The notes beneath the pieces were generated by a model, which made no database searches, was not told the DNA's origin, and saw only the letters and a program-made list of their open reading frames with translations. DNA of 64,000 bases from Gordius albopunctatus (taxonomy: Eukaryota), in the NCBI GenBank assembly GCA_964276515.1, contig OZ193910.1, forward strand, positions 2,976,001-3,040,000, given 5' to 3'. Positions within the stretch are counted from its first letter, which is position 1. The number at the start of each line of letters is the position of its first letter. Made by a program: the position numbers and the translations under genes. Positions 5,501-62,226 of the stretch are shown in pieces.

Positions 5501-5693
5501 AATGTGGGTTAACAGATTTGGCTCTAAAAATGACACTTGTCACTAAGTAAGTGAACGAATCTTAATATTAAATTTAAAATAATTTTATGGCGCACTTACC
5601 CATTAATTTTAGCTTAAAATATTTATTTCGCTCTATAAACGAAAATTATGACATTTACCACCAAAGTAAGTTGACAAATATAATTTTTATATT

Positions 5694-5862
5694 CATGGGC
5701 CTAGCCAAGGGGAGGCAGGGAGGGGCGGCTGCCCCCCTCTAAATCCAAAAAATTGTTGAAATTTATTAAAATCATGGATAAAATTTCAAAAATAATCATT
5801 TTGCCCCTCCCTAAATCATTATTGCCCCCCCCCCTCTAATCCCACTGCTGGCTACGCCCATG
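5694..5862. mobile_element. hAT-type MITE (CATGGGCGTAGCC family)
   Basis: ~170 bp with CATGGGC.TAGCC terminal inverted repeats; same body as the copies that retain 8-bp TSDs. Confidence 0.8.
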
Positions 5863-6865
5863 TAAATATATATATATATAAAAGGACGAGGGGTAGAATA
5901 TGAAAGTAATATATTGATTAGTAATGTAACGCAAATGATAATGAATAGGTATGAAGAAAGGAATATAATAATTAAGCAATATTTATTAAAGCTAGGAGGG
6001 GATGGGACGCGAAATGTATAACAAACAAAAAAAACAAAAAAAAGTTATGTATATAAAAACATATGATTTTACCAACTCGTCTTTGGCCTACAATATTATA
6101 ATATATAATTATAGCGATAATATAATCTGTATACGTAAAAGATATAATAAATAAAACTATTCCTTAAATATCTGATTGTAATACTATTCGTTCAAATTAC
6201 TATAGTGATAATCTTAATAAAATAAAAGTAGCATTATATGAGTGATGTATCTTCACCTCTTCTTTAATAGACTCCAGAAATTTTAAAATTAAATTTTGCT
6301 ATTGAAATTGCTATTGATTTTTTTTGCCTATTTCTTTGAATAAACCAACGCCGTTAACGATATTTTTTAGTCTAATAAAAATTTAAATTCTTTTAACTTG
6401 ACTTATTGTATATTGATCGTTAAGTTTTCAACAAACCATATTTTAAGCCAGTTCACCGGAAACCCAAAACTTTGATAAAAATTTACCCCAAATAATATGT
6501 AATGGCATTAATTTTCAAAAATCTCTAATGCTTATAGCCTAATAGAAAATAAGCTAGTATCTTTGAGAAACCTCAAAACTTTAGCCAATTTAACGAAAAG
6601 AAATATATAATCCACACCAAATAGATGTTGTTAAAATGCATTTATTGTGTCATTTACACCGAATAAAGGCGGGGGAAATGGGGGGTGGTTTGGAGTTATA
6701 ACGTTCGAAGGTTCAAAAAGAGGATAGAGAATGGTAGAAGGAAAGAAAAGAAATAAACCCGTGGTCGATAAACACACATTATAACGATGGATAACACAAT
6801 TGGGACCCCATTTAATCTCTTCGGACAAATTAAATATTATTGATTGAGGTCCTAAGCTTGAGTCT

Positions 6866-9800
6866 TCAGCAATCGCTTCCTTTTTTCCCCGAACTGTTGT
6901 GCTGGGTAGTTTGAGCTGTAGAATTGGAATTGTTGTTGTTAAAATTGCTTTGCGATGATAGTAAGGCGTTAGTCGTACTATTTATGAGATTATTTGTGTT
7001 GATGGAGGTATAGGGGGCACCTAACCCGTACAAGTGGCCTGAGTACTTGAGATCATCTATACTGTCTTCGAAATACATCTACGTACAAAGAAGAAAAGGC
7101 TTAAATTTTGTGTGTGTGCTTATATTGGTGTCGTAAAAAGACCCAAATTTGTTTAGTCCACCTTTGATACAGGCTAGAGGACTAAGGGCCGACTCAACAA
7201 AAACACACCAAATCCTCAGGTCTCTTTTTTCAAATTTTGACTAAACCTAGAGCGACTAACACCAATGATCGACTAAACAAAACCCAGGTCGTTTTACAAC
7301 ACTAGTGAGTACTACTAGTGTAAAAATTAACGTTTTCCACTGAAAAATACCATATAACTCTGTCAGTTATCAATGTATTCCTCCCCCGCCCCCCCCTGGT
7401 TTTCGGGGGGGGGGCTCTTAATATAAGCATACTTACTTCGCGCATTTTGAAAAAAGCAGCTCCGGTGAGCAAGCTATCGCTACCAGCGGTGTGTTGTGGT
7501 CCGATCCTTTCCAGCTAAGTAAAGATAACAATTATATAAATGTTGAATATTCGATTGAAAGGCGCATAATGTAGATAAAATATAATTCAACATTACATAT
7601 GCATCCAAAATCAATAAAATTTTCAGTATAAAAATGAAAATTTGGGAATATCTAAATCATCAAACATTTAAGGATATAGAAAGAGGGGGGGGGGGCATTT
7701 CCCTAAACCGTCTTAATTTATATTGTCGATCTCCCGCCCTCTGTCCCCAAATCCATCTTTAAAAGGTAACGGGCCGGGCGAGCCCAATTACTCTTAGCTA
7801 TTTGTGAATACAGCGTAAAGGAGTGGTGCTGGTGGGATATAATCCATAAGAGCAAAGTGTGTAATACAATCTATGAAATATGAATACAGCTGAACGTATT
7901 AAAGAGCGCATAGGTAGAGGCCTGCAAAATAAAATTACTTCGGCCCCATCCCGGCCCGACTTCTGAATTTTTATTTTTCCCGAGCCCAAAACATTTTTTT
8001 ATTTTTGCCCGACCCGATCCAATTTTAATTATATTTTTGAAAATTATATCACCACATCTAAATATAATTTGCAACTGGGATAACTTTGAAATACAAAATC
8101 CATCATTTTCGCTCGTTACAATTTATTCAGATAATAATCATTTAAAACTAAAAATCAAACTTTATAAAATATATTTTCAACAGTTCCAAATAAAAAAACT
8201 TTTGAAATATTTGCTTATCTTATTTCTAAAGTTGTAACGGCTATTATGAATCTATTTAAATACTAAAATATGGTTTGCTATTCAGGTCAGTTATATTATA
8301 ATAGACAGAGGGAAAAAGCTGAAGTTTGGAAGCTAAATAATGTAGGCTATGCGAAGATAATTACACGGTTCAACAAGAAAAATTAACAGGCAAACTGTTT
8401 CCAGATTCTGGTAGAGTTTTAAACGGTGAACACAAATATGTTTTTAGTTTTTTACCTATACGTCAAGTTTTTTAAATATTTGTTGTCAAAGTTGCCAAAA
8501 ACGCGATTTTAGCGTTTTTCAAACGTAAATAACTTGCAAATTAGTCGGTAAAATTTTTCTTTAATAGATTTAATACGTAGAGATAGGGGAGAGGAAAGTA
8601 TTCACAATTTTTTTTTATCCTAGCACATTTACTTTTTAAATTATATACAACATTAACTATCCCTATCTTTTACATTGACAAATTACACCAGACTTGAGGG
8701 CGCCCTCCCTTCTCTTCAATACTAGGAATTAAGTGCGTGTTGTTGTTTATCTACTCTACTACTACTATTACCCCCTTATTTTTCACGCTCGAGTAAAAAA
8801 TAAGGGGGGGGGGGAATGAGCCTGTTCGATACCAGGGTTTATATCAATCAAATCTGCCAAATGCCCGGTTACTTACATCTCTCTCAACCAAGCAACCACG
8901 GCTGCCAGTGATATCAACTGGGTTATTAACCAGCATGGTGCTGGTTATGATGGTAATGGGCGAGATATGGTATTAGCATTTTGGCATAACAACACTAATG
9001 GTAAGTGATGTGTGCAAATTAACAGGTTTAGCACTATACAAGCAGAACCAATTCGAGCCGATTAACATCACTAGTTTTATTTAGAGATATAATTGAAAAT
9101 TAATATCTAAAAAATGAGTTGGAACGACTATCTAATTTGTTTAAATTATTATCCCTGAAAAGTGGTTTGAAAAATAAGCTTTAAATGCTCATTTGTTCCT
9201 CCGCAGGGAAATGTTTATCTACTTTATTAAGAAAATGTATATAAAAGTATAGCTAGCGTGTTAAGTTGCTATAAAAAGAAAACATATGTATATGAAGATG
9301 TAGTATAGACGTTGAGAAGGAAATATGAGGTGACAAACGCGAGAGATTCGATGGGAGGGGGGGGGGGGTTAGCATGTTAAGTTTCTTGGGGGATGTTGGA
9401 TACATGATGGACGTATATATTTCGTGACATATGGATGACATTTGCAACCATCAGTCGGAGCATTGTCATGACATAGTTTTTGGCGCAGAGTTTGCGGATT
9501 AACGCGTCATTAGGTCTATGTCATGATCCCAAGGCTCCTAAGATGATGGGCTCGATTGATATCGTTTTGTAATGTTGAAGGAGTGCTTGGCGAACACCGT
9601 CGTACTTGTGAATCTTGGTTTGACGGGCAATATCTAAGGCTGCGATGCGGTTGTCAAAGGGAATGGCTACGTCGATAATTATGGCCTCGGTTCCTTTGGC
9701 AATGACCTAGTCCGGGCGTAGTCCTGAACCATCGACCGTCGTGTTGTCTCCTACCGCCTTATAAGTCTTTTTGGCGACATCCTTGAGTCTATTGACCACC

Positions 9801-12800
9801 AGATTGTGCCGCTTGGTGTAGGAAGCAGAATACTTCATGCAATGGTCCAGGACATGAGGTAGCGTTTCATCAGCCATCCCGCATCGCCGGCACTTTTTGT
9901 CTTTCCCCCGGTTGGTAATAGCACCCTTTAGGGGCAGTTGGTTGAGCCTCGCCCGATGGATGAAGCGCCAGTCAGAAAATAGTGTATACCGTCCATCACG
10001 CACGAATTGATGGCTGGCCGGGTGATTAGCAACGCACTCCATAACCTTGCCTTAATCGGGTAGAGATATAAGTTCGTTAGCTAATCGGTCTCTCGTGTAA
10101 GTGCGAAGGGAATTCACGTGCTTTCTTCTCATGTTTGGATCAATCCGAAGGTGGTCCTTGGTGATGAAGATAGCGTCGTCGTGAATTCCCAGGAGAGACC
10201 GATTTGACTGGATGCCTTCCTTGCCATTGTCCAAGTGTTGGCAAAACGGTTTGACTGTCCATTGAATGGCGCCTCGAGGGATCCGGATAAGAATTTCCCG
10301 AGAAACTCCGGTGTAATTATGGTGGCCTTAGGGCAGATCTGGCCAGATCCTTTACCCTTGGATCGCGGGAGGTAAGGAGTTTGAAGGCGTTGTCGACCGA
10401 GAAAATATCCGAATCAATAGCGCACTGAGGAAATCCCAGAGCCCCCTTTTTCGAAGACCCATAGAAGTAGCCATTGGCCGAATGGACGGTTAGATTACAA
10501 TTATTCCTGAGGAGGGGACGTAGTAATTTGTCCAAACCCACCCAGTCGCTTTTGGTGTGGGACTCCATTCGCATGGAGTGAGTCAACGTCAAAAATAAGA
10601 ATGTCTTCAGGGCGTCTGCGCGTTGCCACGGAGTAAGGCACGACGTCATTAGCCTCTCAGCAACATTCTTCCTTTCTTCCATGTCACCCATCGACTTGGG
10701 TATGGAAACTCCGATAGGTTTGCCTAAAAATTCCTCGAACTCTCCTGAGCCCAGAGTACGCAGAGGAACATTTGCAAGGAAGAATTGGGTCGGGACAGTT
10801 CCATAAGGAGTTCCCTTAGCGCGGAGAGTGACGCATATGGAGGAGTTGATGGTTAAGCCCACTCGCTGCGACATGGATGCAACTATATCCAGTGAAGCCG
10901 AGAGGTCGGACTGGGAAGGGGCCAGCAGCAACAGGACGTCGGCATAGGCCAGCACACGGGGATCAAGGTGGCCGGACTGTAGACTCCCCAAGATAAGATC
11001 CACTGCAATATTGAAAAGGAGCCCCGACAGCGGGCATCCCTGTTTAATACCTGATTTGATTGGGATCGAAGCTGTCCTGCCCTCCTTGGCAGCAAAGGTC
11101 GTAGACGAGTTGGTGTAGATGTCACGAACGATTGCTACCAGTTCGGGATCAACCCCGATGGCCTCAAGTGATAGGGCGAGGGCCTGATGCGGGACTGTTG
11201 AAAATGCGCTGGCAAAGTCCATCCAAGCAAAGTAGACGTCCATCCTACGGAATTTAGCTTCTTCTAAGGTGCGACGAAGAACGTAATTATGTTCTAAGAC
11301 ATCGTCGAATGGCATAAATCCCTTTTGAGCAGGACTTAGGGCTTCGTTGCTTTCCAGCCACCGAGACAACCTGTGACATAAGAGGCCGGTGTAGATTTTG
11401 TAAATTGTACAACTCATTGTGATTGGCCTCCAGTTTTTGATGTCCCCCACATCTCCCTTTTTGTGGACAAGGATAGAATCTGCAACTTTCCAGGCGTCCG
11501 GGATGCGGTGGTACTTGAGGCAGATATTAAAGATAGCCCCCAGCAACTTTCCGCATGGATCCATGCGAAGCCAGTTTGCATATGTGATTCTATCCGAGCC
11601 AGGAGCAGTATTCTCTGTCCATTCGACTTTGGATACGACTTCTTTGGAAGAAAAGGGGGCAGTTTGAGGGGTTCTGTGACTTTAGGTGGAATATCAAACA
11701 CTGATGGGTCAGTTTCATGTTTGCTACCGATAAGTTGTTTGTAAAAACCCTCGACGGTGCTTACCTCTAATTGGCATCGGGGAGAATCACCATCCAGAAT
11801 TAAACGGACGGCATTCCTACGATTCCGCTTATAGAGGCTTTGCATGACCTTGGCATCCGTCACATCCAACTTTGGTACGTTGTGTCTGGGGCGTGGGGGC
11901 TTGATCTTCAGCAATCGGCAAGCCTCAGCCGTGATGCGTCCAAGAAGTCCTTGAAAAATCTCCTAATTTTCCAGAGAATTGTCTCTCCGCTCGATATTGC
12001 TGAGCTCCTGAAAAAATTGAGAGGGAAGTTTCGTCTGTAACGGGTTGGAAAAACCGATTGCTTACGCGTCAAGGACTCTTTCAAAATCAGAAAAAAACTA
12101 TGCCTCGATTGACAAAGTAGCGAGGGCATTGTTGTTTGGCTGTGAAAAATTCCACCCCTATATATTTGGAAGCAAGTTTACCTTGCGGACAGACCACAAA
12201 CCTTTGGAGCGGCTATTTGGCGGATATCAGGATATCTCCAAAATTGGCAACAATCGATGAATAATGTGGTCGTGGAAGTTGTCTGCCTATGATTATAGTT
12301 TAGAATATCGACCTGGGAAAGAAAATTGCTTTGCAGATGCCTTGTCGCGACTACCCTTATTATCGGAAATTAACGAGGGGCTATCGGAAGATGAAAAAAT
12401 TTTTACCTGCCTAAAGTCAATTACGCTAGAAGACTTACAGGTGTCAGAAAAAACAATCGCGAAGGAAACTCTTGGTGATAGCACGCTCAAGAAAGTCTTA
12501 ATATATATAGATCAAAGTTGGAATGTAAACAAAAATGCCGTCGGCGAAAATGTATTACCGTATTTCAATAGGAAAAGTGAATTATGTTCGGATAAGGGTA
12601 TCATACAATGGAACGGTCGAATAGTCATACCAAAGACACTACGTAAATCGTTATTAAATATTTTGCATAGAGGACACCCTGGGATTCACGCAATGAAATC
12701 TATTAGTAGATATTATGTTTACTGGCCAGGTTTGGACGTAGACATTAGTCAATTTATTGCGAATTGTGGTAATTGTCAAAGGAACCGCATAAATATTCCT

Positions 12801-15800
12801 GAAGTTCCATTATATTCGTGGAACGTAACGAACACGCCTTGGGAACGATTAAATATAGATCTAGCAGGACCGATGGACTCCTACTACTGGTTTGTCGGTA
12901 TTGACTCTTATTCAAAGTGGATTAAAGTGGAACTCCTTAGGAATACATATTCTAAAATATTGATAAAAATAACTAATAGGATGGTTTGCTCGATTTGGTG
13001 TTCCACGTCAAATAGTCAGCGATAATGGACCTCAGTTTACTTCGGTGGAGTTTAGGCGATTCTGCAAGAATTATAATATAGTGCATATTCTGACCTCTCC
13101 GTACCATCCCAAGACGAATGGTTGTGCAGAGAGATGTATTAGAACACTAAAAAGCCGTTACTTGGCCACCAGAGAAGACATCAACGATACGGAGTGTATG
13201 AATGAAATTTTATCAACATACAGGGTTTGTGAACATAACTCAACAGGTAGGTCGCCATCCAAGATGCTTTTCGGAGGGGGGAATCGGACAATGCTTGATT
13301 GGTCCCGACCAAGTGCCCAAACCACTATGGAACACAAAATTAAAAAACAAGCCTTTCACCACGATATGACGACACGTCCACGAAACTTTGAAATAAATGA
13401 ATTAGTCTGGGTAAAAATGAATTGGCACCAGGATGGCGGGAAGGAAAAGTACTCGCTAGGAATGGGTTATTGTCCTATAGCGTTGAAAGTAACAATAAAG
13501 TCGTGCGCAAGCATGCGGACCAATTGAAAAAAAGGTAGTTGAAGAGAAAAATTCGGCTTGCCCGGTTGTAAATGATGCATCATTTGAAGAGGAGAAGGTA
13601 GTTTATGATCAAGAGATATCAAGACCAAATCATCAAGAGATATCAAGACCAGAACCTGGAGACTCAATACGGGAAGAACTATTGCCGGTAGATATTAACA
13701 TACCGGAAGATAAAGATGATGGAAACTTAAGAAGAGGAAATAGACCAAGGAGGCCACCGCGGAGATTAATTGAAGAGATTTAAAGCTGGTTAAACGGGGA
13801 GAGACGTAACGATTGTGTTATGTAACAAAAATTTATGATGTAACAAGTGTGTTTTGTAACAAAATGTAATTTTGTTATAAAATTTAAATCGCGTATTTTC
13901 AAATTCGAATGAACAACGTCTCTTTTTTATACTACCAAAATGGTATAAATGTTAGGTGTTAAAGAAATATGTAATCTTTATTTCCTTATGAAGCTTTAAA
14001 AATTATGATGTTTTCCCCTTATATATACAATATAAATTTAAATGCAAAAGACCATAGATGTTTTCAGTTGCGGCCCATAGCTCTTAAAATATGAACAACC
14101 TCTTTGAATATGTCATATCCGCTAGATGGCAGCAGCGTATCACTTTAGCGTTACGCAGATTAATTCCTACCTGTTAATGCTTCAAGTGTTTTTATGTTTA
14201 CATTTATATCACTATTGACTAGTGTTGTGAATGAACGCGTAAAAAATTGATGAAAGGCGTTCTTTTGTTTTTTGGTAAACTTTCAACGTGAACGCGCTCC
14301 TTTTTTTATGAACGCGTTCAAATTTAACGTTCCTTCAATTTTAAAAACTCTTTTTTATTTTTATTTATTTTAAAAATATTTTGTAACAAAAAAGTCTTAT
14401 ATTTTTTAATCAGCTGTTTTCCATTTTTCCTATAACCTATTCTGAAATAAAAATACCATAACGTGCATAATAATATAAGATAAAAGTTTATTAATTTAAT
14501 ATTATTAATTATATTTTAGTTTGTTGGTTAATATGGACAATCATATTATTATATCGTCGTCATCTCCAGATTCTGAATATTCAAAATCAGCAGATGAATT
14601 GACATTGACATGCCAAAAATATGATAATCACTCATTTCATATAAAGGACTGAATTCAATAATTACTAAATGTAAAAAAAATAAAATTTTAGTTTTATTCG
14701 AAAAAGGGTTTGAAACCCCTAGAATTGATAATGAAAGAACTATCGATTCCGAAATATCATTTTTGACGAGGAAGTAGAGGGCGGATTGGAGGATGATATC
14801 TTATCGCAATTTTTTGAAGCGAAGGACAAAACATTAAATCTTTTTAATAAATTTCCTGCTTTAAAAGATTTGTTTATTAAGTATAATACTCAAATCCCCC
14901 CCCCTTGTGGAGCTGGTTTTTAGTATAACTAACGCTTTATTGACTGCCAAGCGTTCCTGCTTATCCAACGAAAATTTTGAAAAACAATTATTATTAAAAA
15001 TTGATAAGAAAATTTTTTTATAAATAAAAAATCTTTATATTCGCTCGAAATAAACCTATTATTTTTTATCATTGCTAATAAATTGTGTTAAAAAAATATA
15101 AGACATTTATTTATATTAAATTAAATAAAAAAAATTATCATAAAATTTTGAATGAACATAAACGCGTTCTTTTTTTGAGAACGAACGTGAACGCGTTCGA
15201 TTTAACTTTTAAATTAAAATTTTACGAACAGAACTTTTTATTGATGATTAAATTCAAAATACATAAAAATAAAGTAAAGCAATTTTAATAGACCTGAAAT
15301 AAATATACAATTTTACGCAAATCGTACAAATGTTTCGCCTTTTACCATTTACTTTACTTACCACCATTTTTCATTAATTTGAAATAAACCTCATCTTCAT
15401 CCATCTTTCGCCTTAGAAGTGGCTATTTTCTATTATGAAATCGGTCATTGAGGGTGAAAGAATCATTCTACCATATCCTTTCCCGCCTATTCTGAATTGC
15501 CCAGCTGGTTGTTGCTCAACAACCATAAACCCCTTAGGGACTCGGAGCGTAAGTTTGAACTTCAACTCCACCTAGTCTCGGCACACAAATTAAACCTTAC
15601 AACAGTTATCCGTTGTCAGCGTTGCAGCTGCGATATTGTTGGCGCCCCGCAGAAACATCACTGCAACAAATAGATAAAAGTCAACTTCGAAACCTAGATG
15701 CATCAAATTTCAGGCAATACCCACTTTAATCATCTCACTAGAACGCCCAATTCCCAGCCGACAAATAGGAGCATGGTCCCCACCCCCTCTCCCAAGGTAT

Positions 15801-18800
15801 ATGTTCTCAAAGGCCCCAGGATTGGAAATTCGGATCCCGGCTTCATGTCCCATTTCCTTTGACCCCATGGCATGTTATACGAGCCAATCGATTACAAGTC
15901 CGGTAACGTCCCTATTATCAACACCTGCACCCTCACGGTCGATCGCCCCACCCACATACGCCCAAGTAGTTGTTGCCAACACTGGCAACAAACCAACAAT
16001 TAGGAAAGCCCCATCTCCCCAAAGGAATATGGCCGATCAGCTCGTTGCCTACATTTCAAGAGTCGACATCGTGAAGGCTGCTACAGAAAAAATGAAAACA
16101 AAATCCCCATCTTCCGCTTCAGTAAGAAACAAACCTAGGCGGCCCAAACCAGTTCCCACATTAATTGCGACATCCACAAATCAGGTGGTGATAAGAAATT
16201 CGTTTTCACCACTTGAGGTTGAACCAATGCAGATTTCCGAAGATGCAACCGATCAACCAAGGTTGGCATTGTCCCACACAGACGAAACTTCCCTCTCTCA
16301 ATTTTTTCAGGAGCTCAGCAATATCGAGCGGAGAGACGATTCTCTGGAAAATTGGGAGATTTTTCAAGGACTTCTTGGACGCATCACGGCTGAGGCTTGC
16401 CGATTGCTAAAGATCAAGCCCCCACGCCCCAGACACAACGCACCAAAGTTGGATGTGACGGATGCCAAGGTCATGCAAAGCCTCTATAAGCGGAATCGTA
16501 GAAATGCCGTCCGTTTAATTCTGGATGGTGATTCTCCCCGATGCCAATTAGAGGTAAGCACGGTCGAAGGTTTTTACAAACAACTTATCGGTAGCGAGCG
16601 TGAGGCTGACCCATCAGTGTTTTATATTCCACCTCAAGTCACCGAACCCCTCAAACTGCCCCCTTTCCTTCCAAAAGAAGTCGTATCCAAAGTCGAATGG
16701 ACAGAGAATACTGCTCCTGGCTCGGATAGAATCACATATGCAAACTGGCTTCGCCTGGATCCACGCGGAAAGTTGCTGGGGGCTATCTTTAATATCTGCC
16801 TCAAGTACCACCGCATCCCGGACGCCTGGAAAGTTGCAGATTCTATCCTTGTCCACAAAAAGGGAGATGTGAGGGACATCAAAAACTGGAGGCCAATCAC
16901 AATGAGTTGTACAATTTACAAAATCTACACCGGCCTCTTATGTCAAAGGTTGTCTCGGTGGCTGGAAAGCAACGAAGCCCTAAGTCCTGCTCAAAAGGGA
17001 TTTATGCCATTCGACGGTGTCTTAGAACATAACTACGTTCTTCGTCGAACCTTAGAAGAAGCTAAATTCCGTAGGAGGGACGTCTACGTTGCTTGGATGG
17101 ACTTTGCCAGAGCATTTCTGGTAGCAATCGTTCGTGACATCTACACCAACTCGTCTACGATCTTTGCTGCCAAGGAGGGCAGGACAGCTTCGATCCCAAT
17201 CAAATCAGGTATTAAACAGGGATGCCCGCTGTCGGGGCTCCTTTTCAATATTGCAGTTGATCCCATCTCGAGGAGTCTACAGTCCGGCCACCTTGATCCC
17301 CGTGTGCTGGCCTATGCCGACAACCTGTTGCTGCTGGCCCCTTCCCAGTCCGACCTCTCGGCTTCACTGTACATAGTTGCATCCATGTCGCAGCAAGTGG
17401 GCTTAACCATCAACTCCTCCAAATGCGTCACTCTCCACGCTAAGGGAACTCCTTATGGAACTGTCCCGACCCAATTCTTCCTTGCAAATGTTCCTCTGCG
17501 TACACTGGGCTCAGGAGAGTTCGAGGACTTTTTAGGCAAACCTATCGGAGTGTCCATACCCAAGTCGATGGGTGACATGGAAGAAAGGAAGAATGTTGCT
17601 GAGAGGCTAATGACGTCGTGCCTTACTCCGTGGCAACGCGCAGACGCCCTGAAGACATTCTTCTTTTCGACGTTGACTCACTCCTTGCGAACGGAGTCCC
17701 ACACTAAAAGCGACTGGGCGGGTTTGGACAAATTCCTACGTCCCCTCCTCAGGAATAATTGTAATCTAACCGTCCATTCGGCCAATGGCTACTTCTATGG
17801 ATCTTCGAAAAAGGGGGCTCTGGGATTTCCTCAGTGCGCTATTGATTCGGATATTTTCTCGGTCTACAAAGCCTTCAAACTCCTTACCTCCCGCGATCCA
17901 AGGGTAAAGGATCTGGCCAGATCTGACCTGGAGGCCACCATTACTCGCCGACTAAGGGGCAGTAGTGTCATTAAACCGGAGCTTCTCGGTAAATTCTTAC
18001 CCGGATCGCTCGGGGCACCATTCAATGGACAGTCAAACCGTTTTGCCAACACTTGGACAATGGCAAGAAAGGCATCCAGTCAAATCGGTTTCTCCTGGGA
18101 ATTCACCGACGACGCTATCTTCATCACCAAGGGCCACCTTCGGATTGATCCAAACATGAGAAGAAAGCTTGTGAATTCCCTTCGCACTTACACGAGAGAC
18201 CGATTAGCTGACGAACTTATATCTCTACCCGATCAAGGCAAGGTTATGGAGTGCGTTGCTAATCACCCGGCCAGCCATAATTCGTGCGTGACGGACGGTA
18301 TACACGATTTGCTGACTGGCGCTTCATCCATCGGGCGAGGCTCAACCAACTGCCCCTGAAGGGTGCTATGACCAACCGGGGGAAAGACAAAAAGTGCCGG
18401 CGATGCGGGATGGCTGATGAAACGCTACCTCATGTCCTGGACCATTGCATGAAGTATTCTGCTTCCTACACCAAGCGGCACAATCTGGTGGTAAATAGAC
18501 TCAAGGATGTCGCCAAAAAGACTTATAAGGCGGTAGGAGACAACACGACGGTCGATGGTTCAGGACTACGCCCGGACTTGGTCATTGCCAAAGGAACCGA
18601 GGCCATAATTATCGACGTAGCCATTCCTTTTGACAACCGCATCGCAGCATTAGATATTGCCCGTCAAACCAAGATTCACAAGTACGACGGTGTTCGCCAA
18701 GCACTCCTTCAACATTACAAAACGGTATCGGTCGAGCCCATCATCTTAGGAGCCTTGGGATCATGGCATAGACCTAACGACGCGTTAATCCGCAAACCCT

Positions 18801-21800
18801 GTGCCAAAAACTATGCCATGACAATGCGCCGACTGATGGTTGCAGATGTCATCGCTATGTCACGGAATATATACGTCCATCACGTATCCAACATCCCCCA
18901 AGAAACTTAACATGCTAACCCCCCCTCCCATCGAATCTCTCGCGTTTGTCACCTCATATTTCCTTCTCAACGTCTATACTACATCTTCATATACATATGT
19001 TTTCTTTTTATAACAACTTAACACGCTAGCTATACTTTTATATACATTTTCTTAATTAGATAAACAACAACACGCACTTAATTCCTAGTATTGAAGAGAA
19101 GGGAGGGCGCCCTCAAGTCTGGTGTAATTTGTCAATGTAAAAGATAGTAGGGATAATTAATGTTTTATATAATTTAAAAAGTAAAAGTGCTACGATAAAA
19201 AAAATTGTGAATACATTCCTCTCCCCTATCTCTACGTATTAAATCTATTAAAGAAAAATTTTACCGACTAATTTGCAAGTTATTTACGTTTGAAAAACGC
19301 TAATCGCGTTTTTGAGAAAATTTGACAGAAAATATTTTAAAAACTTCACGTATAGGGAAAAAACTAAAAACATATTTGTGTTCATGGTGAAAAACTCTGC
19401 CAGAATCTGCAAATAGTTCACAGGTTAATTTCACAAGTCCATTATTTGTTGACCAGTGTTATTTGAAATCGAGTTGAGTTTTAAATCATATTTTATAAAA
19501 GATTAGTTTGTTTTAGTTCAATTCGGGCCGGGCTCGGGCCTTAGATCGCCAAATCTTAAACTCACGCTGGTTGAAACCCCAAAAGCCGATAAAAATTATC
19601 AACGCATAATTTGTCATGCGACAACTTTTCGGCAAAACAATCAGAGCTACTATTTAGCGTGCAAAAGCATCTGGGTTTTGTATGATCGACCTTAGGTTTA
19701 AGTCGACAAAATATAAACAAATCCACTAGGTTTTTTGTTTTAATTTTCTTAGTCGCAAAACCTTTGGTTTGAATACTACTACTACTAATATTACTATGAT
19801 GGCATTGCAAACGTTAAAGTCTAAAATGGAAAAACAATTTTAAAAAATGGCTATTTGACGATAAACCTAGTTCGGAATTTCTATTTATATATATATAAAC
19901 AAAACTAAGTATTAAATAAAACAAAAACCCATTTCAAAAACCAAACGATTTTTATATCGCGACCGCCATGTGACGATTTAAATTGACCATGTCGAATTTT
20001 TTAAGTAGCTTATTAGGAATTCTAACTTGACATGGTTGTACAAAGTAAAACTTAAAAGATGTTTTCAAAATATTATTTGATTTTATTAGTGTCTCACATC
20101 TAATTGATCGGCAATTTCTTGCAGTCCACCCTTTAGGCTTCGGCAACTTTTCATCAAATATTTGATATCGTAAATGCAGGGGAAAAAAGTTTGGACCAAT
20201 TCGAAAAATTGGCATTCGTCAGGTGGCAAGGGGCTAACGGTGAGTAGCTTAAGCATGTAACCAAAATCGTAGCCACTGTTTAAAGGAAAAATATTGGAGA
20301 ATCATACATTTTTGTAGGATGTGCTTATGCTAGAGGTGTGCACGGATCAAATTTTTTTGATCCGATCCGATCCGAGGGGTTTTTGAAAAATTTTATATCC
20401 GACCCGATCCGAGTATTTTAAAATCCAAATCCGATCCGAAATTTTTAAATTAAAATTTTACGAACAGAACTTTTTATACCAAGAGGGAAAGGAGCTACGC
20501 GTCGGCTTTAAGGAAACGGGAGATGCTGATTTATCATTGACACTAGCTCCTTTCTCGCCAAACAAGAAAGTCTAGCTAGGGAAAAACGCTAGGGAAATAC
20601 TGATAAATATGTTGGGGTAAGTAAGGTGAGAGGTGGTATTGGGCATCAACAATAGTAAAGTAAAAAAAGAATGGAAAGATAATTATGAAAAGGTATACTA
20701 AAAATTATTAATTTAATTAATTAGAACTTATTATTTTTATTTTAAATTTGAAAATCCGATCCGACTTCCAAAATTAGCTTATGCTAAAAAATTTAACCAT
20801 TTTAGAATATATTAAAAACAGTAAAAGCACCAACCCTTAATTGTTCAAGTTGAATGTGGGAATACTCAGATGTATAATAAATATTTTGAGAATTCAAACA
20901 TTTTAAAACCCTTTAATTAACCACATAAAATCTTTTAAGCCTTAAATAAAAAGACAATAATTAATTAATAAAAATGGATGAAATGTACTTATTATAGTTG
21001 ATTTTTATTTTCAAATGTGAGCTTAGTTGATACCTATGGAATGAAAGCCATTTAATGTCGTCCATAAGGACAGTCCCAGACATCATTAATAGCTGAGCAA
21101 ATTCATCGGGATCTATGCCATCTTCTTCATGCTTTTGAAATTGCAACCCCGCCTTCTGTAATAATTCAATACTGTCTTGTGCAAACATATCATTCCTATA
21201 TCATCAGCACAAAACTAAATTATTGGGGAAAAAATATTTACTTGAGGCTAAATTTAAAATTAAATTGCCATGTTAGGTATCCTGGAGGTGTTTTTCCATT
21301 TTCATCCATGAAAGTTAGACCAATTTGAATTATCTTTAACATGTCCACATTACATCTCAAAAGTTGATACTGATAATCTGAAACACTCTTAAAAGCACCA
21401 ATAGGTCTAGCTACTACTCCTGGAAACTCTGTGTCCTGTTTTTAAAATAATATAAATACATGTAAATATTCAATTTGTAAATTGGTATTTATTCAAAATA
21501 GCATTTGGCAGTCATTTTATTTGCCTAGAACAAATTAACAAGCCAAAATATCAAAATCCATTATTTGAATAAATGTGAAATGTATGTTGGAATGTAAATT
21601 TTTAACGCAATGATATTTATAAATATTAGAATATAAAAATTAACAGACATAAAGTCTCGTTAAAGCCCCTAATATTGTATAAATTTTATTGAAAACAACA
21701 ATATCTGAGACAGATATGATCAACAATAATTTAAAACAAAATAATAGATTATCCAACTGATATTTAAACAATAAAAAAGGATTTATAAGTGTACCATAGC

Positions 21801-38675: not shown

Positions 38676-39323
38676 TTATAAATATAAATGTGTTTACGCA
38701 TATTGCCCTTTCCTCAAAGGAAACCATTGATTGTATCAACTATTTCTATTGCTTCGTGTCGATTTTTTTATTTACTCGATACTGTTTTATAGGCTAAAAT
38801 TTTAAAAAATGATCATTTTGCCCCTTCCTAAATCATTAGTGCCCCCCTCTAATTCCAATCATGGCAAAGCCCATGTAAATCGCTATTATTTTATATTACA
38901 TCTTCACCATTTTACCTGACCCAAAATAATGGAACCCCTAAGCTGCCACTTTCTCTGTCAAACTAAACTGACAATTCTATCACTAAAATCAACTTTCTTA
39001 TGTAATGGATTGAACATTTCTCGGAATATTATTATGTCAAGTTTATATATTTTTTTTCAAACTAGCAATTAATTAACTAATTTAAATTTTTTAATATCAA
39101 TTTTTTTATCTAAATTGCGAATGTTAGATTTTCAAGGTTTCCCAATGTATTGGTAATTTAAATCATATGTAATATATCTTTTTAATTAGTTTGTATGAAA
39201 ATCTGAAAATTAACTACTTAAACGAAATACCCCAACTTAAGCAATATATTTTTACAAAACCAGAATAAATTTCAAATTTTGTTGGAAATTTGGGATAAAA
39301 ATGTCTAAATTGTTTAATTTGTT

Positions 39324-39434
39324 ATCCCCTAAAGAGGGGTTCGAAAAATAAGCTTTAAATGCTCATTTGTTCCTCCGCACGGAGACCTTTAGTAAAAGGC
39401 GAAAGGTCTATACGATTTGCGTTGAAACCGAGTT
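39324..39434 (-). ncRNA. U5: U5 spliceosomal snRNA gene (apparently intact)
   Basis: AACTCGGTTTCAACGCAAATCGTATAGACCTTTC-GCCTTTTAC-TAAAGGTCTCCGTGCGGAGGAACAAATGAGCATTTAAAGCTTATTTTTCGAACCCCTCTTTAGGGGAT. It has the invariant loop 1, the perfect stem AGACCTTT/AAAGGTCT, the CCG internal loop, an Sm-like ATTTTTCG and a 3' hairpin. Ends are +/- 3 nt. Confidence 0.92.
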
Positions 39435-40969
39435 AACGATTCGATGTAAAAACGCCTTGTTTATATATCATTCAAATGATATTGAACTTTAGTATGTAAA
39501 GATGCATAACAACTCTTCTCCTATTGTACCTTAAAAATAATATATTATTTCATCCAATTTTATAATTTTAACTTAATTTCAACTTAGGTAAAAAATCTAT
39601 ACCCCATTTTCTAAAGTACCAAAGTGTTTTCCCTCGTCATATATTTAGTATTCCGCTAGATGGCAGTATACAAATATTTTTTGCTTGGCAAGCGTGTAAG
39701 TAACCAACCTAGTAATGTTTCATTCGTTTCTAGTCAAACATGTCAAGTTAAGATCTGTTTTATTAAATCTCTAATAGAGTGCTCAGACTCACAGGAGCCG
39801 TTCATTTAACAAAATCCTAACGACCGCCATCGTGAACTACTTAATTTTTTTTATATTGTATTAGAAATCATCGATATTATAATATGTAATAACTCATTTT
39901 TATTTGTTAGTGTGAGTTTATAAATTATTTGTATTTGAGATTCATTAAATATAATTATTTTACAAAATCCACTAAAAAGTAGGTTCAAATCTTGTTCAAA
40001 AATGCAGTTTTAAACACTATAGTTTAATTTTAAAGGCCCAAAAAAAGACTGCAAATTGTTTTTTAACCTAAATAATTATATTTATGAATATAGTCAATTC
40101 CTAGCCAACTAAATTAGGCGTTGAAGATAAATGATAATATTTAGAAAATTTTTAAAAGGGATCGAGCAGTTATTAAGTTATAGTAAATGCGGAGAATACA
40201 CAAGTGTAGATTTTTATAGAAGAGATATATTTAAATTTAAGCGTATATGAAATATTAAATGATAATAATGATAATTAGATTCATGGGCATAGCCAGGTTT
40301 TGGATTAGGGGGCATGGCGAAACGTTTGAAAGTTCAATTAGGGGGCGGGGAAAACATAATTTTTTTGATTTTTAAGGGTTTTTGCATTGAAAAAATATTT
40401 TCCGTCATTTAGAGGGTGCGGCCCCTTGTCCTGGCCACGCCAATTATTAGATTTAATAAAAGTAACTTGTAAATTGATAACCTCAAGGCTACTAGTTGTA
40501 CGTTTTATATCCTCAATATGCTTGAAGCTGGTATCTTTGATCGTTTGCAAGTGAAGCTTTGAATCAATTCTTTTCCCCTGTTTAAGATGCAATTTATCCG
40601 CCGGGGCGTGGTTATGCGTGGTTCCATCAAGCACTTCAGTTATCTAATCATTAACAACAACTTTAATCCTACAATATCTATATTTTATTTATGGCTATTT
40701 GCAGGATTTTCAGTATGTTACACTTACAATGCGTTTTATAAATCATAAAATATAACGTGAAACAACTATTCGCTAAATTGATTTTAAATGAAATTGTATG
40801 AACTTCATATTTTCATTATTTAGTTTATATTACTTTAACTAATAAAAGTTTTTTAATAAAAAATATATATTGCAGTCCCTCATTGATAATATAATCATTG
40901 ATTAAGTGGCCTATGAAGTTATACCATAAATTAATGTTATAACACTTTTTATAATAAAGTGAGTTACGA

Positions 40970-49100: not shown

Positions 49101-52100
49101 GCATCCCGTGTAAACTAATGTGAATCCGCACGTTAGCCCTGCGAGTTCCCAAGTGTGGACAGTAAGGGCACTTAAACATCCTCACGTATTTGCCCTTCTT
49201 AAGACCCCAAGCCACCGATATATCGTTTCCATCTTTGCCCCATCTGCACGGCTTAGGTGGTTGACTAAATAACGAAATTCGTTTACAAAGATAACATAGC
49301 AATAAACCATGGGCGTAGCCAATGGGGGGGGGGGGGCAGGAAGGGGCGGCTACCCCCCTCTAAATCTTAAACTTTGCTAAAATTTATTAAAATTATGGCT
49401 AAAATTTCAATAAATGACCATTTTGCCCCTCCCTAAATGATTATTTCCCCCCTCTAATTCTAATGCTGGCTACGCCGATGCAATTAACCGATAGTTTCTT
49501 TAAAATTAAAAAATAAATAAATGGTAATTATGGCAAGTGGAGATATATAAAATAACGGTAAGAAGGGCAGAGATCAAAACTCATAAAAATTATTTCAAAA
49601 ACGGCCACGTGTTTCTAGTTCGTCTTTTTATAAATAGGGAATTGATGCAATAAACACATTGCCTACAAAGTTGAAGGTTCCTTTACTTTATTAGACCTTT
49701 TATACAACATCTCCACTTAAAATAATTTAAAGAGAAACTTAGAGGGGGGGGCAATAATGATTTAGGGAGGGGCAAAATGATCATTTTTTGTAATTTTAGC
49801 TATAATTTTAATAAATTGTAACAAATTTTTGGATTTAGATGCGCTACCCCCATGAAGGCTAACTATTATTCTAAAATTTAGAATTAAAGGTTAAAAATTA
49901 ATTTAAACCTGGGAATCAAACTATCTTCAGATGGTTGATCAAGATCGATTTGGTCCAATAAATTATGCTTTTCCACTTTATGAGTGGCATCATTCGGAAT
50001 TGGTGAAGCCTGAGGGCAGGATATATTATGCTCGGTACTGTCTTTGCCAAAATCTTGATGGCACGTGTCATCTTGTTGTTTGACTGTGTTAGATGGTTCA
50101 ACTGTCGATGAAAGTTTCTCATCTCCATTGTAACACGGAGTTGTTTTGGTTGGGTAGCTGTCATTTTTTTGCAAGTACTCCGCGTAAATCAGCTTTAATT
50201 CCTGATTTTTTTTTTCTTTTTGAACAGCGGTTCCAAGCATGGAGGACAAGGAAAAGGGGACCCTCGTTTTGCGTTTGTTCGGAGATTTTTCCGCTAAACA
50301 AAATAATTTATTAAAAGTCATTCTAATTTCAGGGCTATTTTAAGTTTGAAGGAAAAAAATCGTAGAATATTATATAATTTATATAATATATGAAACCTGG
50401 TGTGGGTGGTATATAGGGCTCCTCGTTTCCATTGTAAGAAAGTTTATGGTCATTTTGGGGAGAGTGTAAAGTTTCTTCATAATTTTGAATGGTTAATAAG
50501 GTGTCGCGACCCAGTCCCGACGAATGTGACAATTTACCATCTCCAAGAGAAGGACCTTTTAATGTCATTTTGATGGAATTATTGTCGCCTTCGTCATCTG
50601 GTATTAGACACCTGTAATCATTTAAATCACCAGATTTCTCTTCTTCCCCACCATTAACGCTCTGTTCCTTAACATTTTCTTCCTTTGGTTTTTGATCCCA
50701 GGCCCAAGGCAAATTGTAAGGAGTCAATTTGACTTGTTCTTCATACAGCGGGGCGTCGTCTATGTCACAACATTGTGCGCTTGGGTCATAATGCCGAAGT
50801 CTATTCAAGATTTCTTGCGGGTTAGGCACGTGCATTCTCAAATGTTGCCACAACATGCGTTTCAAAGGTACGTAGTAAGGGCAGAACGGACATTTGAAGT
50901 AAGGCACCACCGGACTATTAGATAGACTACACGGGTCCTGATGTAATTCTTGGTGCCTTTTGAAAGCGGTGGCTTTATTACTTATGAAAGGGCATATGGT
51001 ACAAGGGAAAACGTTGGTTCTAGGATTCCCAGCAGCTGTTGTGGTTAAACTATTAGTGACCACTCGAGTAACGGGACCAGAATGAGTGGAAGTGGGCAAT
51101 AGAGGATTGACCGCGCTCCCTAATTTTGAGGCAGGTTGGGCGGAAGTGGTTGCGTTCGCTGAGCCATTAACTGGTGTTATGCGGTCGTAGTAGTTATCTA
51201 CTACGGGCATTATAGCGCTCGAATCGAGAGTTAAAATATCGCGATCCTCAACAAAATCTTGAGAACTAGGGTCAGCCCCGGCATTATTTTGGAGCGGAGG
51301 TTGTTGTTGACCTTGCCTTCGCCTCGTTACTTTGTACCCATGGACTTGATAAACGTGTCTTTCGGTGGACAAACGTCGAGCATTTTTGTATTCGCAAAAT
51401 TTGCAGCGATAAACGAGTAGTGGATTGCTGTAGTAAGAGCAAGAAGCGTTCGATCCATTTTCAAGGCCTCCGGGCCTAACTCTATCGTTTTGTGCTTCGG
51501 GCGCTGGATTTACATAGAGTATACTATTCAATTTTACATTTTATTTTTAATATATATAATTATGTTTAAGAGATAAAGTCCCGCACTAGCTCCCGCACTA
51601 GCCACCACTTCTTGATTTGAGTTGGATTAAAAATAGTATGGACTAAACATGTTAGAAAGCCCCTGACTGGATCGCTAATAAATTGAAAAAGAAGAGAAAG
51701 ATTCCCAAGGCATGGGTTCTCTATTTTGCAAAGCATAATAATAGATTATGTAAAATCCCCGCTAGTTTTAAGGGTCAAAATTCTAACCGAAGATAGGTTT
51801 AAGGAGATGGTGCAAAACAGACCATTGCAGGACTCATAAAATAATTAAATTTTATTTAAAAAATATACCATTTTCTCTAGTTGTTATAGAGCCCCTTGAT
51901 TCATTTTTTGCCGTTTCCGGCTTAAGAGCCCCAAAATTGGCGCCGTCTTCCGTAACCTGTTGTTGAGAAAAATCTGGATTGTTGAACAAAGCAGCACCTT
52001 TTTGTTGTAACAAATTTTGGCGGTGCATGTAAAGTTGATGTTCCATCCTCAATATTTTAGTAGGGGGGTTAGGTCCAGTCTTAATAAATTCGTCAGAAGC

Positions 52101-55100: not shown

Positions 55101-58100
55101 TCATATCCTCCTAGCCCACCACCCCCACCCCCACCCGCACCCCCCACTGCTCTCTATCTTTAGCTAAAGCATCATTATCATAAATTTAATAATCAAGGCG
55201 TAACAAGGTTTCCCTGTGTCATACATTACTTACATACTATATCGGATTCAAGGTTGGGACTATCCCGTTTACCAATAGATCAAAGATGCCATTAACACGG
55301 GCGTAGCAAGAGGGAGGCAGAGAGGGGGGGGGGGCTGCCCCCTCTACATCCCACCATTCTTTAAAACTTATTAGAATTATGGGGCTAAATCTTCAAAAAA
55401 ATCACATTTTGCCCCCCCCCCCCTCTAATTTCAATGCTAGCTTCGCCTAACGACCCAACCCTTCTACACGGGGTAGCCGCGCGGCCTTTAGTATTATAAA
55501 TAATTCCATTGCATTGCTGTCGGATAAAGCGTGTCTCTTCTTCCCTTCAACAAATGTTATTGCGGCCCCGTTCTTCCTCTATTATATATCATCCCCCCTT
55601 GATCAAGGGAGCGAGCACAAGACGACAAGAAGGGGGGGGGGGCGAGTAAATGTGGGGTACAATGCGAGGTTACCCTCCCCTCCTATCCCCCCCTCCCCAA
55701 AAATGCATGACAAATCGTCAAGAATTTTACCCGTTTAGCTCACTTAAAATTTTACCTTTTAGCCCTGTAGTATGATGATGGGTTTGTTAGAGTTAGGGCA
55801 ATATTGGTTTTGGACCCTAACGTAAACACTAGTGTATGGTAAACCAAAAAATTTGTGGTCTCTTTTTCTTAGTAGACCCCTAGGCTTAGTCGAAATTTGA
55901 AAAACAGACCAGAGTCTAGTCTTGGTAAAACCCGTTACAGCACTAGTTAGTAGACACTTTTTGAAAATGCGTCAAATCAATTATATAAATTTTAGGCTAA
56001 AAACATCCAGAGAAATAAACTTAGAACTAAGGCGATGATCCATCTTTTTGTTATTTAAATGCGAATAATGATTAAAATATATACTCTTTTAGAATGGTAT
56101 TTACAATTGATATTAAGATTAATTCATTATTTACTACCATATACCGCCAAAAACTTACCTTTCGTGTGAAGAGAGGTGCAGGCATCCATACTACCATTGG
56201 TTTGATCTTCACGACCAGCATTTTCAAAAAGGTTGGAACCAAACTAACCAATATATATTGTAATCATGTAATAACGCTAGTAATAGTAATTGTCAATTTC
56301 GCAAACATTTTATGAAAATACAAATAGCTATACTAATCAATCTCAGTTAAAGGGGTAAAAGGTGAGGGCTATGAGACCCCACTGATTTATTCATAGTTTG
56401 GGCTGAGCAAAGCTAAGTATTATAAAATCGGAACTTTGTGCTAAGAGAAAAGGGAGTTCACCATTTTGCTTTAAATGTAATTTAAAATTATTTTATCTTC
56501 ACCCTCTCCAACAAATCATTATAAAAGTTTAGAGAGAAAACCTCCATTTCTGTTCAAAAAAAAGCTGTTCAGAAAATAAGCTAATAAAAAATTTAGACCT
56601 TAAAATGTACTTGATGTCTTATGAGGTGTATGGCGCATAGCGAATTTGAAAATAAAATTTAAATATTGAATATATAAAAATGGGTTAGATATTCAAAAAT
56701 AGGATTTTTAAAAATAAGACCTAATAATTAGATTTATTAATAAGATATCTAAAAATAGCATAGATATTCAAAAATGGTATAAAAAATGGGATATTAAAAA
56801 ATAGTGGGAAAACTTCCGTTAGAAGGTTAAATCTAAATTGCGAAAGAATCTTAAATCCATGGATTAATCTAAATTGCGGTAGAATACGTTTAAATTCTCA
56901 ATTAGATATTCTGCACTATACGCAGAAATTGCCAAATATTCATAAATTTACATTAGATTAGATTGTATGCACTATTTGTCGAAATTGCCAAATGTTCCAA
57001 TTGATTTATTAGCTTTTTTTTCTGATCAGCTTTTTTTGGAGAGCTTTATTTTTGAACACATTTTAGGGTCTAAATTTTTTATTAGCTTTTTTCCTGATCA
57101 GCTTTTTTTTCAATAATAAAGAATACATCATTTTATTAATAACTGCACGTCCTTAGGCTCCATCCAAAGTGCTGTTAGCCAGAGATATTTCGTTGGCCAC
57201 TCTTAACTCTATCTATCTATCTACGTGTGAGGGGTGGGTGTGAGAGTGGTTTGGAAATCGATAAAATGAAAAGCTATAGCTAAAACGGCGAAGTTCTAAC
57301 AACCTGCCAACCAGGCAGTCCCAAACGCAACGTTAAGCTATTTTTGTTAGCACTTATCCTTGGCCCCCCCCCGTTCGGTTATAACGAGTAGCGAGCAGGA
57401 CTCACTACTCTCCTCGTGCCCTGCTGCTATGTGAGCTCCCCCCTCACCCCCTTTGTCATTCTTCCTGTATGATGAGTGCTGGCTGGAGTAGAATTTTTAG
57501 AGCGTAACAATTGGGACGCTTGCCTCCTCCCCTCTTTAAGTGACAACAACTAGAACACACGCACCAGCACCACACAAACTCTCCTAAGCTCCTGAAATGC
57601 CTTTAAAATGTAAGAAACCGTAACTCTTATTTATTTGTGTGCCATTAGACACGTTATAACACAGTTAACTTCCTAGTCCAAAGTCCTTGCGAAATCAGCG
57701 CGAGCCTGGCAACAAATTTTTGAAGTGAAGTTAAACCTAATGCAAACTAATTTTCAAAGGAATTTTTCTCATAATCTATAAAATTCAAACTTAAATTTAA
57801 GGGCATCTAATATTAAATTTGTAAAATTAAAAATTACTTGAGGCGTCGTCACGGTTGTGTCCCGATGGACTTTAGCTTTGTGAGTGAAGGAACCCTTTAA
57901 ACGCAGAGTCCTACGACCGACCCCACTTTTTATTGGTGCTAATGGCACGACTGGTTTTTCCACGGAACTTTCACTTTGGTCCAATCGATTAAGTAAGGTG
58001 GTATTAATCAGTTTATCGCCCGGCTCGTTATTTGCAGTGTCTCGCGCGACTTCGAATGATTTTTGCTGGGATGCCAAATGTTTTGTGTACTGCGCGAACA

Positions 58101-61100: not shown

Positions 61101-62226
61101 CGAAATTACAATGCGGACACTGGATTAGAGGCAGTGCCTGTTGTTGATTATCTTGGATTTCAGAAGGTCCACCGCTTAGCGGACTAGAACGATTAGCGTT
61201 TTCAGCTTTCGCGTTATCATCGGTTTGTTCAGGAGTTCCGTCATTCAAAAATTTATGGCGATTGCCTTGGCAGAACAACGAAATCAAAGGTTAAACATTA
61301 GTTATATCAACGAGAAAAAAATGAAAATTCAGCGTGAAGAGATATGTAGAAAGGTAATCAAATATACAAACACCTGGGCCAAACAGGGGGAGATCGAGCA
61401 AAGCAAAAACATTTACAAAGTGCAGCCTGTTGATAGCAACACCTCTACTACAAATTTTAGATGATGAATGATGATAAACTTGATTCAAGTCTCATGTTTT
61501 CCTATTTATCTAAGTATATTATTGGGCTAAAAAATTGAAAAAAAACAATTTTTTATTTTTAAATTCATTAGTAAACTTTCAAATTCGAACTTTATCCAAT
61601 TTTAATGAATTATCAAAATTTAGAAGCAAGACTTCAGTTTAATTCGTCTACAACATTACATACAAATTAAATTCATAATAGTTGAAGGCTATTTTAAAAC
61701 ATATTATAAATTCGAACAAAGTTTTCAATGTAAAAAAGTTTCTTACACCACAAAAACCTTTTTGCAACCCAACATTGAAGGCTATAAAATTGGATACCTG
61801 TATCCATTGGAATAGGCTCGGGTGTTAGTCTCAAACTGGGTGGGGGACAATGGACCCTTTCTTCGCTGTCTCGTCTAAGGTTAAAGGGGGCGCTGTAATC
61901 ACACTCGTTTTCAATATGGGCTTCCCAATCACTTTGGACGTCATGTTGTTTCGCTAGGTGTCGCCTGATAGATGTCAAGTATCTGGAAAAATAATTCGGA
62001 CAATCGCGACACTTATAAAGGTCCCCTTGAAGTTGGTGACAATATGGATTAGGCTGCGGTCGTTCTTCATTCTCATTAGCGACAATTAAATTCTCACGAT
62101 TGGGGGTAAGATCGTGGGGCGACGGAATTCCATTGGAATGGGATTGTAAAATTTGTTCCAGTGCGCGATTTGATGCAAAAGATTCCTTTCCCCGTTGTAA
62201 GGGTCCGTTATCCATTATTAGTTCAG
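46175..62226 (-). CDS. Very large multi-C2H2 zinc-finger protein, at least 15 exons, about 2680 aa, 5' end not identified
   Basis: Exons 62226-61798, 61265-57838, 56243-56159, 53898-53539, 53093-52722, 52258-51869, 51503-50397, 50293-49909, 49264-49096, 48800-48632, 48325-48135, 47832-47541, 47456-47329, 47243-47140, 46613-46175. All are GT-AG and phase compatible. Fingers split across introns are completed by splicing (CSEC|GKRSYWSWDISKH, LVRHYK|LH). Confidence 0.85.
46713..46879. mobile_element. hAT-type MITE (CATGGGCGTAGCC family), intronic
   Basis: TIRs and a perfect 8-bp TSD ATTATCTT. Confidence 0.88.
49307..49480. mobile_element. hAT-type MITE (CATGGGCGTAGCC family), intronic
   Basis: TIRs and a 7/8 TSD CAATAAAC/CAATTAAC. 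Confidence 0.85.
56551..57110. repeat. Foldback-like element with inverted end repeats
   Basis: AAAAAAGCTGTTCAGAAAATAAGCTAATAAAAAATTTAGACCTTAAAATGT (~56558-56608) is inverted at ~57058-57108, with a further partial unit at ~57005-57040. Confidence 0.55.

Follow-up and report, generated by a model that had tools for sequence, protein, structure and literature searches.

A 64-kb stretch of DNA from Gordius albopunctatus (contig OZ193910.1, positions 2,976,001 to 3,040,000; the whole stretch is called the window here, and positions are counted from its first letter) was found to contain a retrotransposon without long terminal repeats (LTR) that splits a U5 small nuclear RNA (snRNA) gene at the 3′ edge of loop 1 and stands in the sense of U5. 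Further junctions of this kind were observed in sequencing-run contigs of two related organisms. We consider it likely that the element represents a Utopia-like family with a restriction-like endonuclease (RLE), placed in the NeSL/Utopia group on its arthropod branch, and that the 3′ end of this family has repeatedly come to lie at this edge of the U5 loop, likely by target-primed reverse transcription (TPRT) there after a likely switch from U2, and with loose fidelity.

Two copies of the element, pointing away from each other, are present in the window. The right copy (15346-19064, plus strand) is near full length and decayed; its 3′ end reads ...TAGAT (19057-19061), and the AAA that follows (19062-19064) is of the element or of the target. 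Directly before it stands the 5′ half of the interrupted U5 gene, of which 30 nt are left (15316-15345, plus strand), ending in the loop 1 sequence GCCTTTTAC. The left copy (9214-12038, minus strand) is without the first ~930 nt, has several frameshifts and stops, differs from the right copy by 3.4% (93 mismatches over 2754 aligned bases), and is followed by the 3′ half of U5 (9151-9217, minus strand). An intact U5 gene of another paralog type, with an empty target, lies 24 kb away (39324-39435, minus strand; Rfam RF00020, 82.6 bits, E = 1.3e-12). Compared with this gene, 15316-15345 was identical to the 5′ half at 26 of 30 positions (next best place in the window, 20 of 30). For the 3′ half, the 50 nt that adjoin the left copy (from 9217, minus strand) agreed at 45 positions out of 50, as against 28 of 50 at the runner-up place in the window. 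Self-BLAST aligned 39304-39391 with 9131-9217 at 86%; the ~20 nt beyond the U5 3′ half (9131-9150) resemble the stretch downstream of the intact U5. Retained in the left flank are the region of the Sm site and the terminal stem, together with downstream sequence similar to that of the intact gene. Stem Ic is AAATGTTT/AAACATTT in the rejoined flanks and AGACCTTT/AAAGGTCT in the intact U5; these three compensatory pairs are common to both flanks, which are therefore of one U5 paralog type. At its 5′ end the interrupted gene has lost ~14 nt and the promoter side to another high-copy repeat, as indicated by repeat depth and a loose end at 15315. The sequences and coordinates of the initial annotation, checked in the 64-kb window, were reproduced, and its claim of a U5 gene interrupted at loop 1 by an element in the sense of U5 was borne out by the split halves.

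The initial annotation had also stated that no base was lost or duplicated upon insertion. When the flanks were rejoined, no target-site duplication was seen and at most 1 nt was lost, as judged from a single 5′ junction paired with the 3′ junction of the other copy; the absence of a duplication thus holds. Insertion exactly between C and T was not supported, a junction without any lost base being only one of two ways to read the flanks. In the run contigs, the 3′ end of other copies is GAT plus extra As before the U5 sequence; therefore, the T may belong to the element, and one target base was possibly lost at the 5′ junction. Because the element ends in T(A)n, the cut can be located no more precisely than to C^T, T^A or the A-run. 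The TAAACA at the end of the right copy, previously taken as a remnant of U5, is no proof of U5, since it falls within a 10-nt microhomology, TAGATAAACA, that is also the start of a high-copy repeat (8753 and 19057). The U5 3′ half is missing from this copy, which joins the repeat through the microhomology.

The repeat in question (19057-19431, plus strand) has a sister at 8753-8380, some 460 nt downstream from the left junction; over their first ~200 nt the two differ at only 5 places. It has ~100 times the contig depth of the element, and its other strand ends in a (CTA)n run, possibly a tail of the type of short or long interspersed nuclear elements. That the two element copies are probably one insertion, as the initial annotation had cautioned, agrees with this nearly identical downstream sequence; we consider that one insertion was probably duplicated in inverted orientation and then eroded by deletions, so that the window by itself counts as one event. 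When the downstream repeat was compared over all of its 375 nt (6.3% vs 3.4%; Fisher test, P = 0.011), independent insertion of the two copies was at first suggested, a reading that was rejected because the excess was confined to the last ~110 nt. In a synonymous-site test between the copies, 28 of 79 single-base codon differences were synonymous (null, 21.7 ± 3.9; P = 0.067), which does not separate duplication from two insertions. The left copy is cut where a fragment of a Gypsy-type LTR element, comprising the integrase region, begins (12039-13900, plus strand, right edge approximate; matches to Integrase_H2C2 and rve). Short tandem duplications occur at 13605-13652 and 13803-13870, after the integrase fragment.

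Contigs from four runs of two related organisms were placed on the left junction (9120-9330) at 80% likeness. The two runs of organism A contained 51% and 44% of the element words and the two of organism B 13% and 9%; 32 of 206 pieces and 24 of 49 loose-end rows were listed, and contig depths were not taken as copy numbers. Among the 32 listed records, 11 (2, 3, 11, 12, 13, 17, 18, 19, 26, 27, and 28) cross the junction, starting in the U5 3′ half and covering 12 nt or more of the element, record 27 being weak with 12 nt only. By our reading of the difference tables, with depths matched, they represent about seven junction types, of which organism A had three and organism B four. Those of organism A were the window type, a ~13% diverged subfamily on a U5 whose stem is AAACGTCT, with 5-6 extra As, and one further type with a longer A-run. 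Those of organism B were a paralog with AACGG after the loop and 3 extra As, one with the canonical AAAGATTT stem, one with a variant of the AAAGATTT stem, and one with 3 extra bases. In run X4, the AACGG paralog occurred in interrupted form and, in 2 contigs, also in intact form, and element subfamilies ~13% apart (19 differences in ~142 nt between records 2 and 12) used the same U5 site. Use of one U5 site repeatedly, in different paralogs of two organisms, was therefore supported at the level of junction types. Two further contigs of organism B (records 25 and 32) showed the U5 3′ part joined to the 3′ untranslated region (UTR) of the element across deletions (9189->9280 and 9211->9261); these are probably eroded or 3′-shortened U5 insertions.

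These junctions bear on a different account, in which a single old insertion into U5 occurred and the U5 3′ half has since been carried along by read-through transduction or DNA duplication, in a family that does not target U5. Such a history would suit the apparently duplicated window copies (5 differences in the ~200-nt repeat), the non-significant synonymous excess (28 vs 21.7 ± 3.9, P = 0.067), the many element ends outside U5 described below, and the presence of target-derived sequence in the 3′ UTR of some R2 families (PMC5035012). The attached U5 halves, however, belong to more than one paralog type, and an intact gene of one of these types is present in the run concerned; the length of the A-run varies between junctions, subfamilies ~13% apart share the site, and the 5′ and 3′ U5 halves in the window pair as one stem. 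Different paralogs, tails and subfamilies at one site fit repeated insertion and do not fit transduction of one U5 piece, and we regard this account as quite improbable.

Several points weigh against repeated targeting of U5, here and in the phylogeny below. Only 4 of the 11 junction-crossing records (2, 12, 19, and 28) satisfied a strict rule of 31 letters on each side, giving two junctions, one per organism, and the best-matching run, X1, may be the source of the window itself. The 5′ junction was seen once, and the listed rows do not yield the share of U5 among all copies. At least 13 contigs (3 in X1, 2 in X2, 3 in X4, and 5 in X6) carry the 3′ end of the element into non-U5 DNA, and ten of them stop at position 9214, after TAAA, from which it follows that the element's own end is ...GAT plus As. 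As judged from the loose-end rows listed, on- and off-target copies are of the same order in number. The strict site specificity for U5 initially proposed was therefore given up in favor of a preference. U2 was found neither at the 3′ flanks among the loose-end rows listed for the four runs, some of which are a consensus of several contigs, nor anywhere in the 64-kb window.

The off-target ends raise the question of whether the element descends from Utopia but lacks specificity and can prime wherever a nick exposes TTT, with U5 enriched because its genes are open, multicopy and bear ACT/AAA, and because copies there are transcribed and survive. That off-target ends also stop at TAAA is in line with this, as are the weakly specific Utopia families that exist (PMC4640811) and the presence of an unrelated element, with an apurinic/apyrimidinic-type endonuclease (APE), at the same edge of U5 in 6 of 6 junctions examined (see below), so that the site may be intrinsically easy to hit. 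Yet T-rich sites are abundant in this AT-rich DNA, and in the rows listed the U5 junctions roughly equal all others in number; the U5 junctions lie within ~4 nt of one position, and other T/A runs of U5 (Sm site, loop) had no junction among these rows. Priming without any preference for U5 is accordingly judged unlikely, and a U5 preference with loose fidelity is retained as the better description.

The protein encoded by the element was deduced from a decayed open reading frame (ORF). Both copies are dead, with frameshifts, stops, YADN or YADV instead of YADD, and, in the right copy, a 60-nt deletion in the reverse transcriptase (RT). The N-terminal zinc-finger region (15435-15664, plus strand), split by a frameshift, was weakly matched across the frameshift in tblastn comparisons with N-terminal sequences from relatives (4 of 7 queries at E = 7e-5 to 6e-3, the other three weaker). 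The main ORF piece (15678-18359, plus strand) contains the RT (about 16854-17438), the 60-nt deletion at 17117/17118, and the thumb with the PWQR motif; the Pfam matches of the RT had E values of 7.5e-24 (RVT_1, this piece) and 6.2e-27. After a 1-nt frameshift at 18278, the C-terminal piece (18281-18910, plus strand) displays, by structure matches and alignment, a DWRFIHRARL helix, a CCHC knuckle and an RLE with PD..D..K, and it matches the solved R2 proteins 9nl3 (E = 4e-12) and 9dou (E = 6e-12). The order in the single ORF is putative zinc fingers, RT, CCHC knuckle and PD-(D/E)xK endonuclease. No APE domain was matched in the Pfam scan of the element ORF, and no Myb domain was matched on the ORF from 15678, a scan that did not include 15435-15664. 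The element is an RLE-type non-LTR retrotransposon, as first proposed.

For placement, the closest proteins, 38-42% identical over the full query, were those of aphids, ticks, spiders, crustaceans, a springtail and a beetle. Taken by themselves, the neighbors in the tree would point to an animal host, probably an arthropod. A careful RT tree was built under LG+G4 from 47 rows chosen from ~245 RT segments (367 columns), with no named Repbase Utopia; the anchors for Utopia, NeSL and YURE were proxies rather than named Repbase entries, and HERO and R5 were not identified in the set. Both copies grouped with aphid, tick, spider and crustacean proteins in a clade of 26 rows (100/99), itself part of a 39-row group (100/95) that includes the Phytophthora ramorum protein P0068, a nematode protein and Ciona BAC82601, which we take to be YURECi. 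P0068 has RNase H upstream of the RT, a published mark of oomycete Utopia. Outside the group of the element were the 28S-flanked R2 loci L003 and L004, and the APE elements L123 and L135 formed the outgroup. A quick tree with 73 rows nested the element deeper, among arthropod proteins, and the N-terminal finger, PWQR and DWRF motifs were common to the element and the proteins of the arthropod clade in the alignment. By sequence comparison the element is thus placed as a member of the arthropod branch of the NeSL/Utopia group, in agreement with the assignment originally made.

Within the careful tree, the element sits on a long branch (0.57) as sister to L001/P0010 (90/82), outside a 21-row subclade of aphid, tick and spider proteins (89/92), and its best full-length identity to relatives is 41-42%. 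Close relatives with DNA context were three loci among 162 fetched (L001, L002, and L084), of which at least L084 ends inside the ORF; their contigs contained neither U2 nor U5, and no relative in the tree has a verified U2 flank. A separate NeSL-clade lineage with a long-standing U5 target, not derived from a U2-targeting Utopia, would account for this long branch, the sister position, the want of a verified U2-flanked neighbor and the nearest relative, L001, whose contig is without snRNA. We regard it as very unlikely, since the element is inside a 100/99 clade of arthropod taxa listed for Utopia, has the finger, PWQR and DWRF motifs in common with that clade, and is nested among its members in the quick tree. 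Descent from a U2-targeting Utopia is what we infer from the agreement of these taxa with the tables of Kojima and Jurka, the anchors being proxies. As it is Utopia-like in function and without the U2 target that defines Utopia, the element is filed as a retargeted Utopia-like family.

The following mechanism would be in line with these observations. RLE elements nick their target and then carry out TPRT (PMC13580325). In the present family, the zinc fingers and the RLE would recognize the invariant loop, and the bottom strand would be nicked at ACT^AAA or at most a few bases away. The primer released in this way would end in TTT and pair with the oligo-A end of the element RNA, which would explain both the 0-6 extra As and the off-target ends stopping at TAAA. 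The top strand would be cut at almost the same place, and hence no target duplication would arise. The element, inserted in the sense of U5 behind the U5 5′ half and with a 5′ UTR of only 89 nt before the likely ATG, may be transcribed from the U5 promoter. The window would then represent one insertion, followed by an inverted duplication and deletions.

At the 5′ end, a hairpin enclosing the likely start ATG (15435) was predicted at 15404-15461 (plus strand; z = -3.15, with 1 of 200 shuffles folding as well). Its 5′ strand has a 10-nt match to the U5 loop-1 stem-loop, found in 0.2% of control slices and chosen post hoc. Variants at 15424, 15441 and 15442, common in the run contigs, would tighten the hairpin, as judged by inspection. 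The 3′ strand of the hairpin also encodes a conserved EG motif at the ORF start. A switch of the hairpin driven by U5 was considered and not supported, as the hairpin stays in place against the U5 remnant in a read-through transcript (pairing 0.003 for the remnant vs 0.96). No ribozyme of the hepatitis delta virus type was found by Rfam, nor by eye in the 5′ UTR. With only slightly better than even confidence, we propose that a Utopia lineage moved from U2 to loop 1 of U5, as the first RLE family there, and converged on the base step used by Tx1 elements, and that the U5-like strand of the hairpin may be a captured relic of the target that gates translation.

Several features described for Utopia by Kojima and Jurka 2015 (PMC4640811) are shared by the present element: one ORF that encodes putative zinc fingers at the N-terminus and then RT, CCHC and RLE; insertion, in sense, where a spliceosomal snRNA gene is most conserved; no target-site duplication, as in arthropod families, several families also being only weakly specific; an AATAAA-plus-few-bases 3′ end, as in many Utopia ends in S1 Fig; and copies both at and away from the target, as known for families of ants, beetles and reptiles. 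It differs in the target, which is U5 loop 1 instead of U2 nucleotide 38/39, two sites without evident shared sequence. A motif search for the U5 flank in all 10 supplements of that paper returned two chance matches only. In that paper, snRNA-targeting elements are given as Keno and Utopia (U2), Dada-U1 and Dada-U6 only, and NeSL is considered to have exchanged U2 for a different target. Other RLE lineages with changed targets are NeSL-1, YURE and R5/LIN, and R2, R8 and R9, which use the spliced-leader exon, a U2-derived satellite, tRNA and other ribosomal DNA (rDNA) sites; none of these is listed with U5 in the portions used (PMC4640811, PMC5035012). R2 is further distinguished by its 28S rDNA site and Myb domain; the present element has U5 flanks and lies outside the 28S-flanked L003/L004 clade. 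RLE proteins resemble Prp8 (PMC5678591), which contacts U5 (PMC5718144); this likeness was set aside, as no evidence was seen that it bears on U5 targeting.

U5 is named among the targets of Tx1-clade families (PMC4494074, Fig. 3 legend), and these share the target with the present element. Tx1-type APE elements are otherwise different, with two ORFs and an AP-type endonuclease, and are far apart in the RT tree. Such elements (L135, L137, L138, L143, and L150) were observed on an 82-kb contig (G001:C7) that is animal-derived and filed in a bacterial assembly, where a 436-nt U5 tandem array (89 motif matches) is interrupted by two-ORF APE+RT elements. Their poly(A) is followed by the U5 3′ half at the same loop-1 edge in 6 of 6 3′ junctions examined, and intact U5 lies upstream at 7 places examined (the last one degenerate). 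Intact U5 upstream of each copy of L135 contrasts with the U5 5′ half before the window element. Keno (Tx1) and Utopia arrived in parallel at one and the same site in U2 (PMC4640811), a pair mirrored by the APE/RLE pair at U5 here; Keno itself differs in having an APE enzyme and a U2 target. Another APE+RT element, also in host DNA filed in a bacterial assembly (L123:1597-5699), has an A-tail joined to U2 at the Keno/Utopia site, with a U1 gene ~220 nt further on.

Many arthropod NeSL/Utopia elements were reportedly mined by Fell et al. 2025. The novelty claimed at the outset holds in part: U5 as a target is already in print for Tx1 (PMC4494074), and no RLE-clade family in U5 was found in the literature, with Repbase, Fell et al. 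2025 and the supplements of PMC4494074 lying outside the scope and priority being uncertain accordingly. In two papers of 2026, as far as consulted, Utopia is described only as U2-specific or loosely specific.

Elsewhere in the window, host exons at 901-2133, 50335-51540 and 57769-61290 (all minus strand) encode a Tmem26-family protein and long C2H2 zinc-finger frames. Self-comparison of the window also revealed a dispersed repeat family of ~180 nt, 77-88% alike and in both orientations, at 5689-5869 and about ten other places (33617, 34992, 35985, 36579, 44657, 46707, 49308 and more).

Target switches of RLE elements are rare, and how they occur is an open question. R2-type proteins are being developed for gene insertion, with retargeting as a main limit (PMC13580325). 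A U5-preferring relative of the U2-targeting Utopia makes a target switch testable by comparison and exchange of domains between related proteins and, if the present reading is true, would provide a natural U2-vs-U5 pair on which the retargeting of an R2-like protein could be mapped. In U2, and again here in U5, enzymes of two unrelated types share one base step, which suggests that few snRNA positions are usable as homes.

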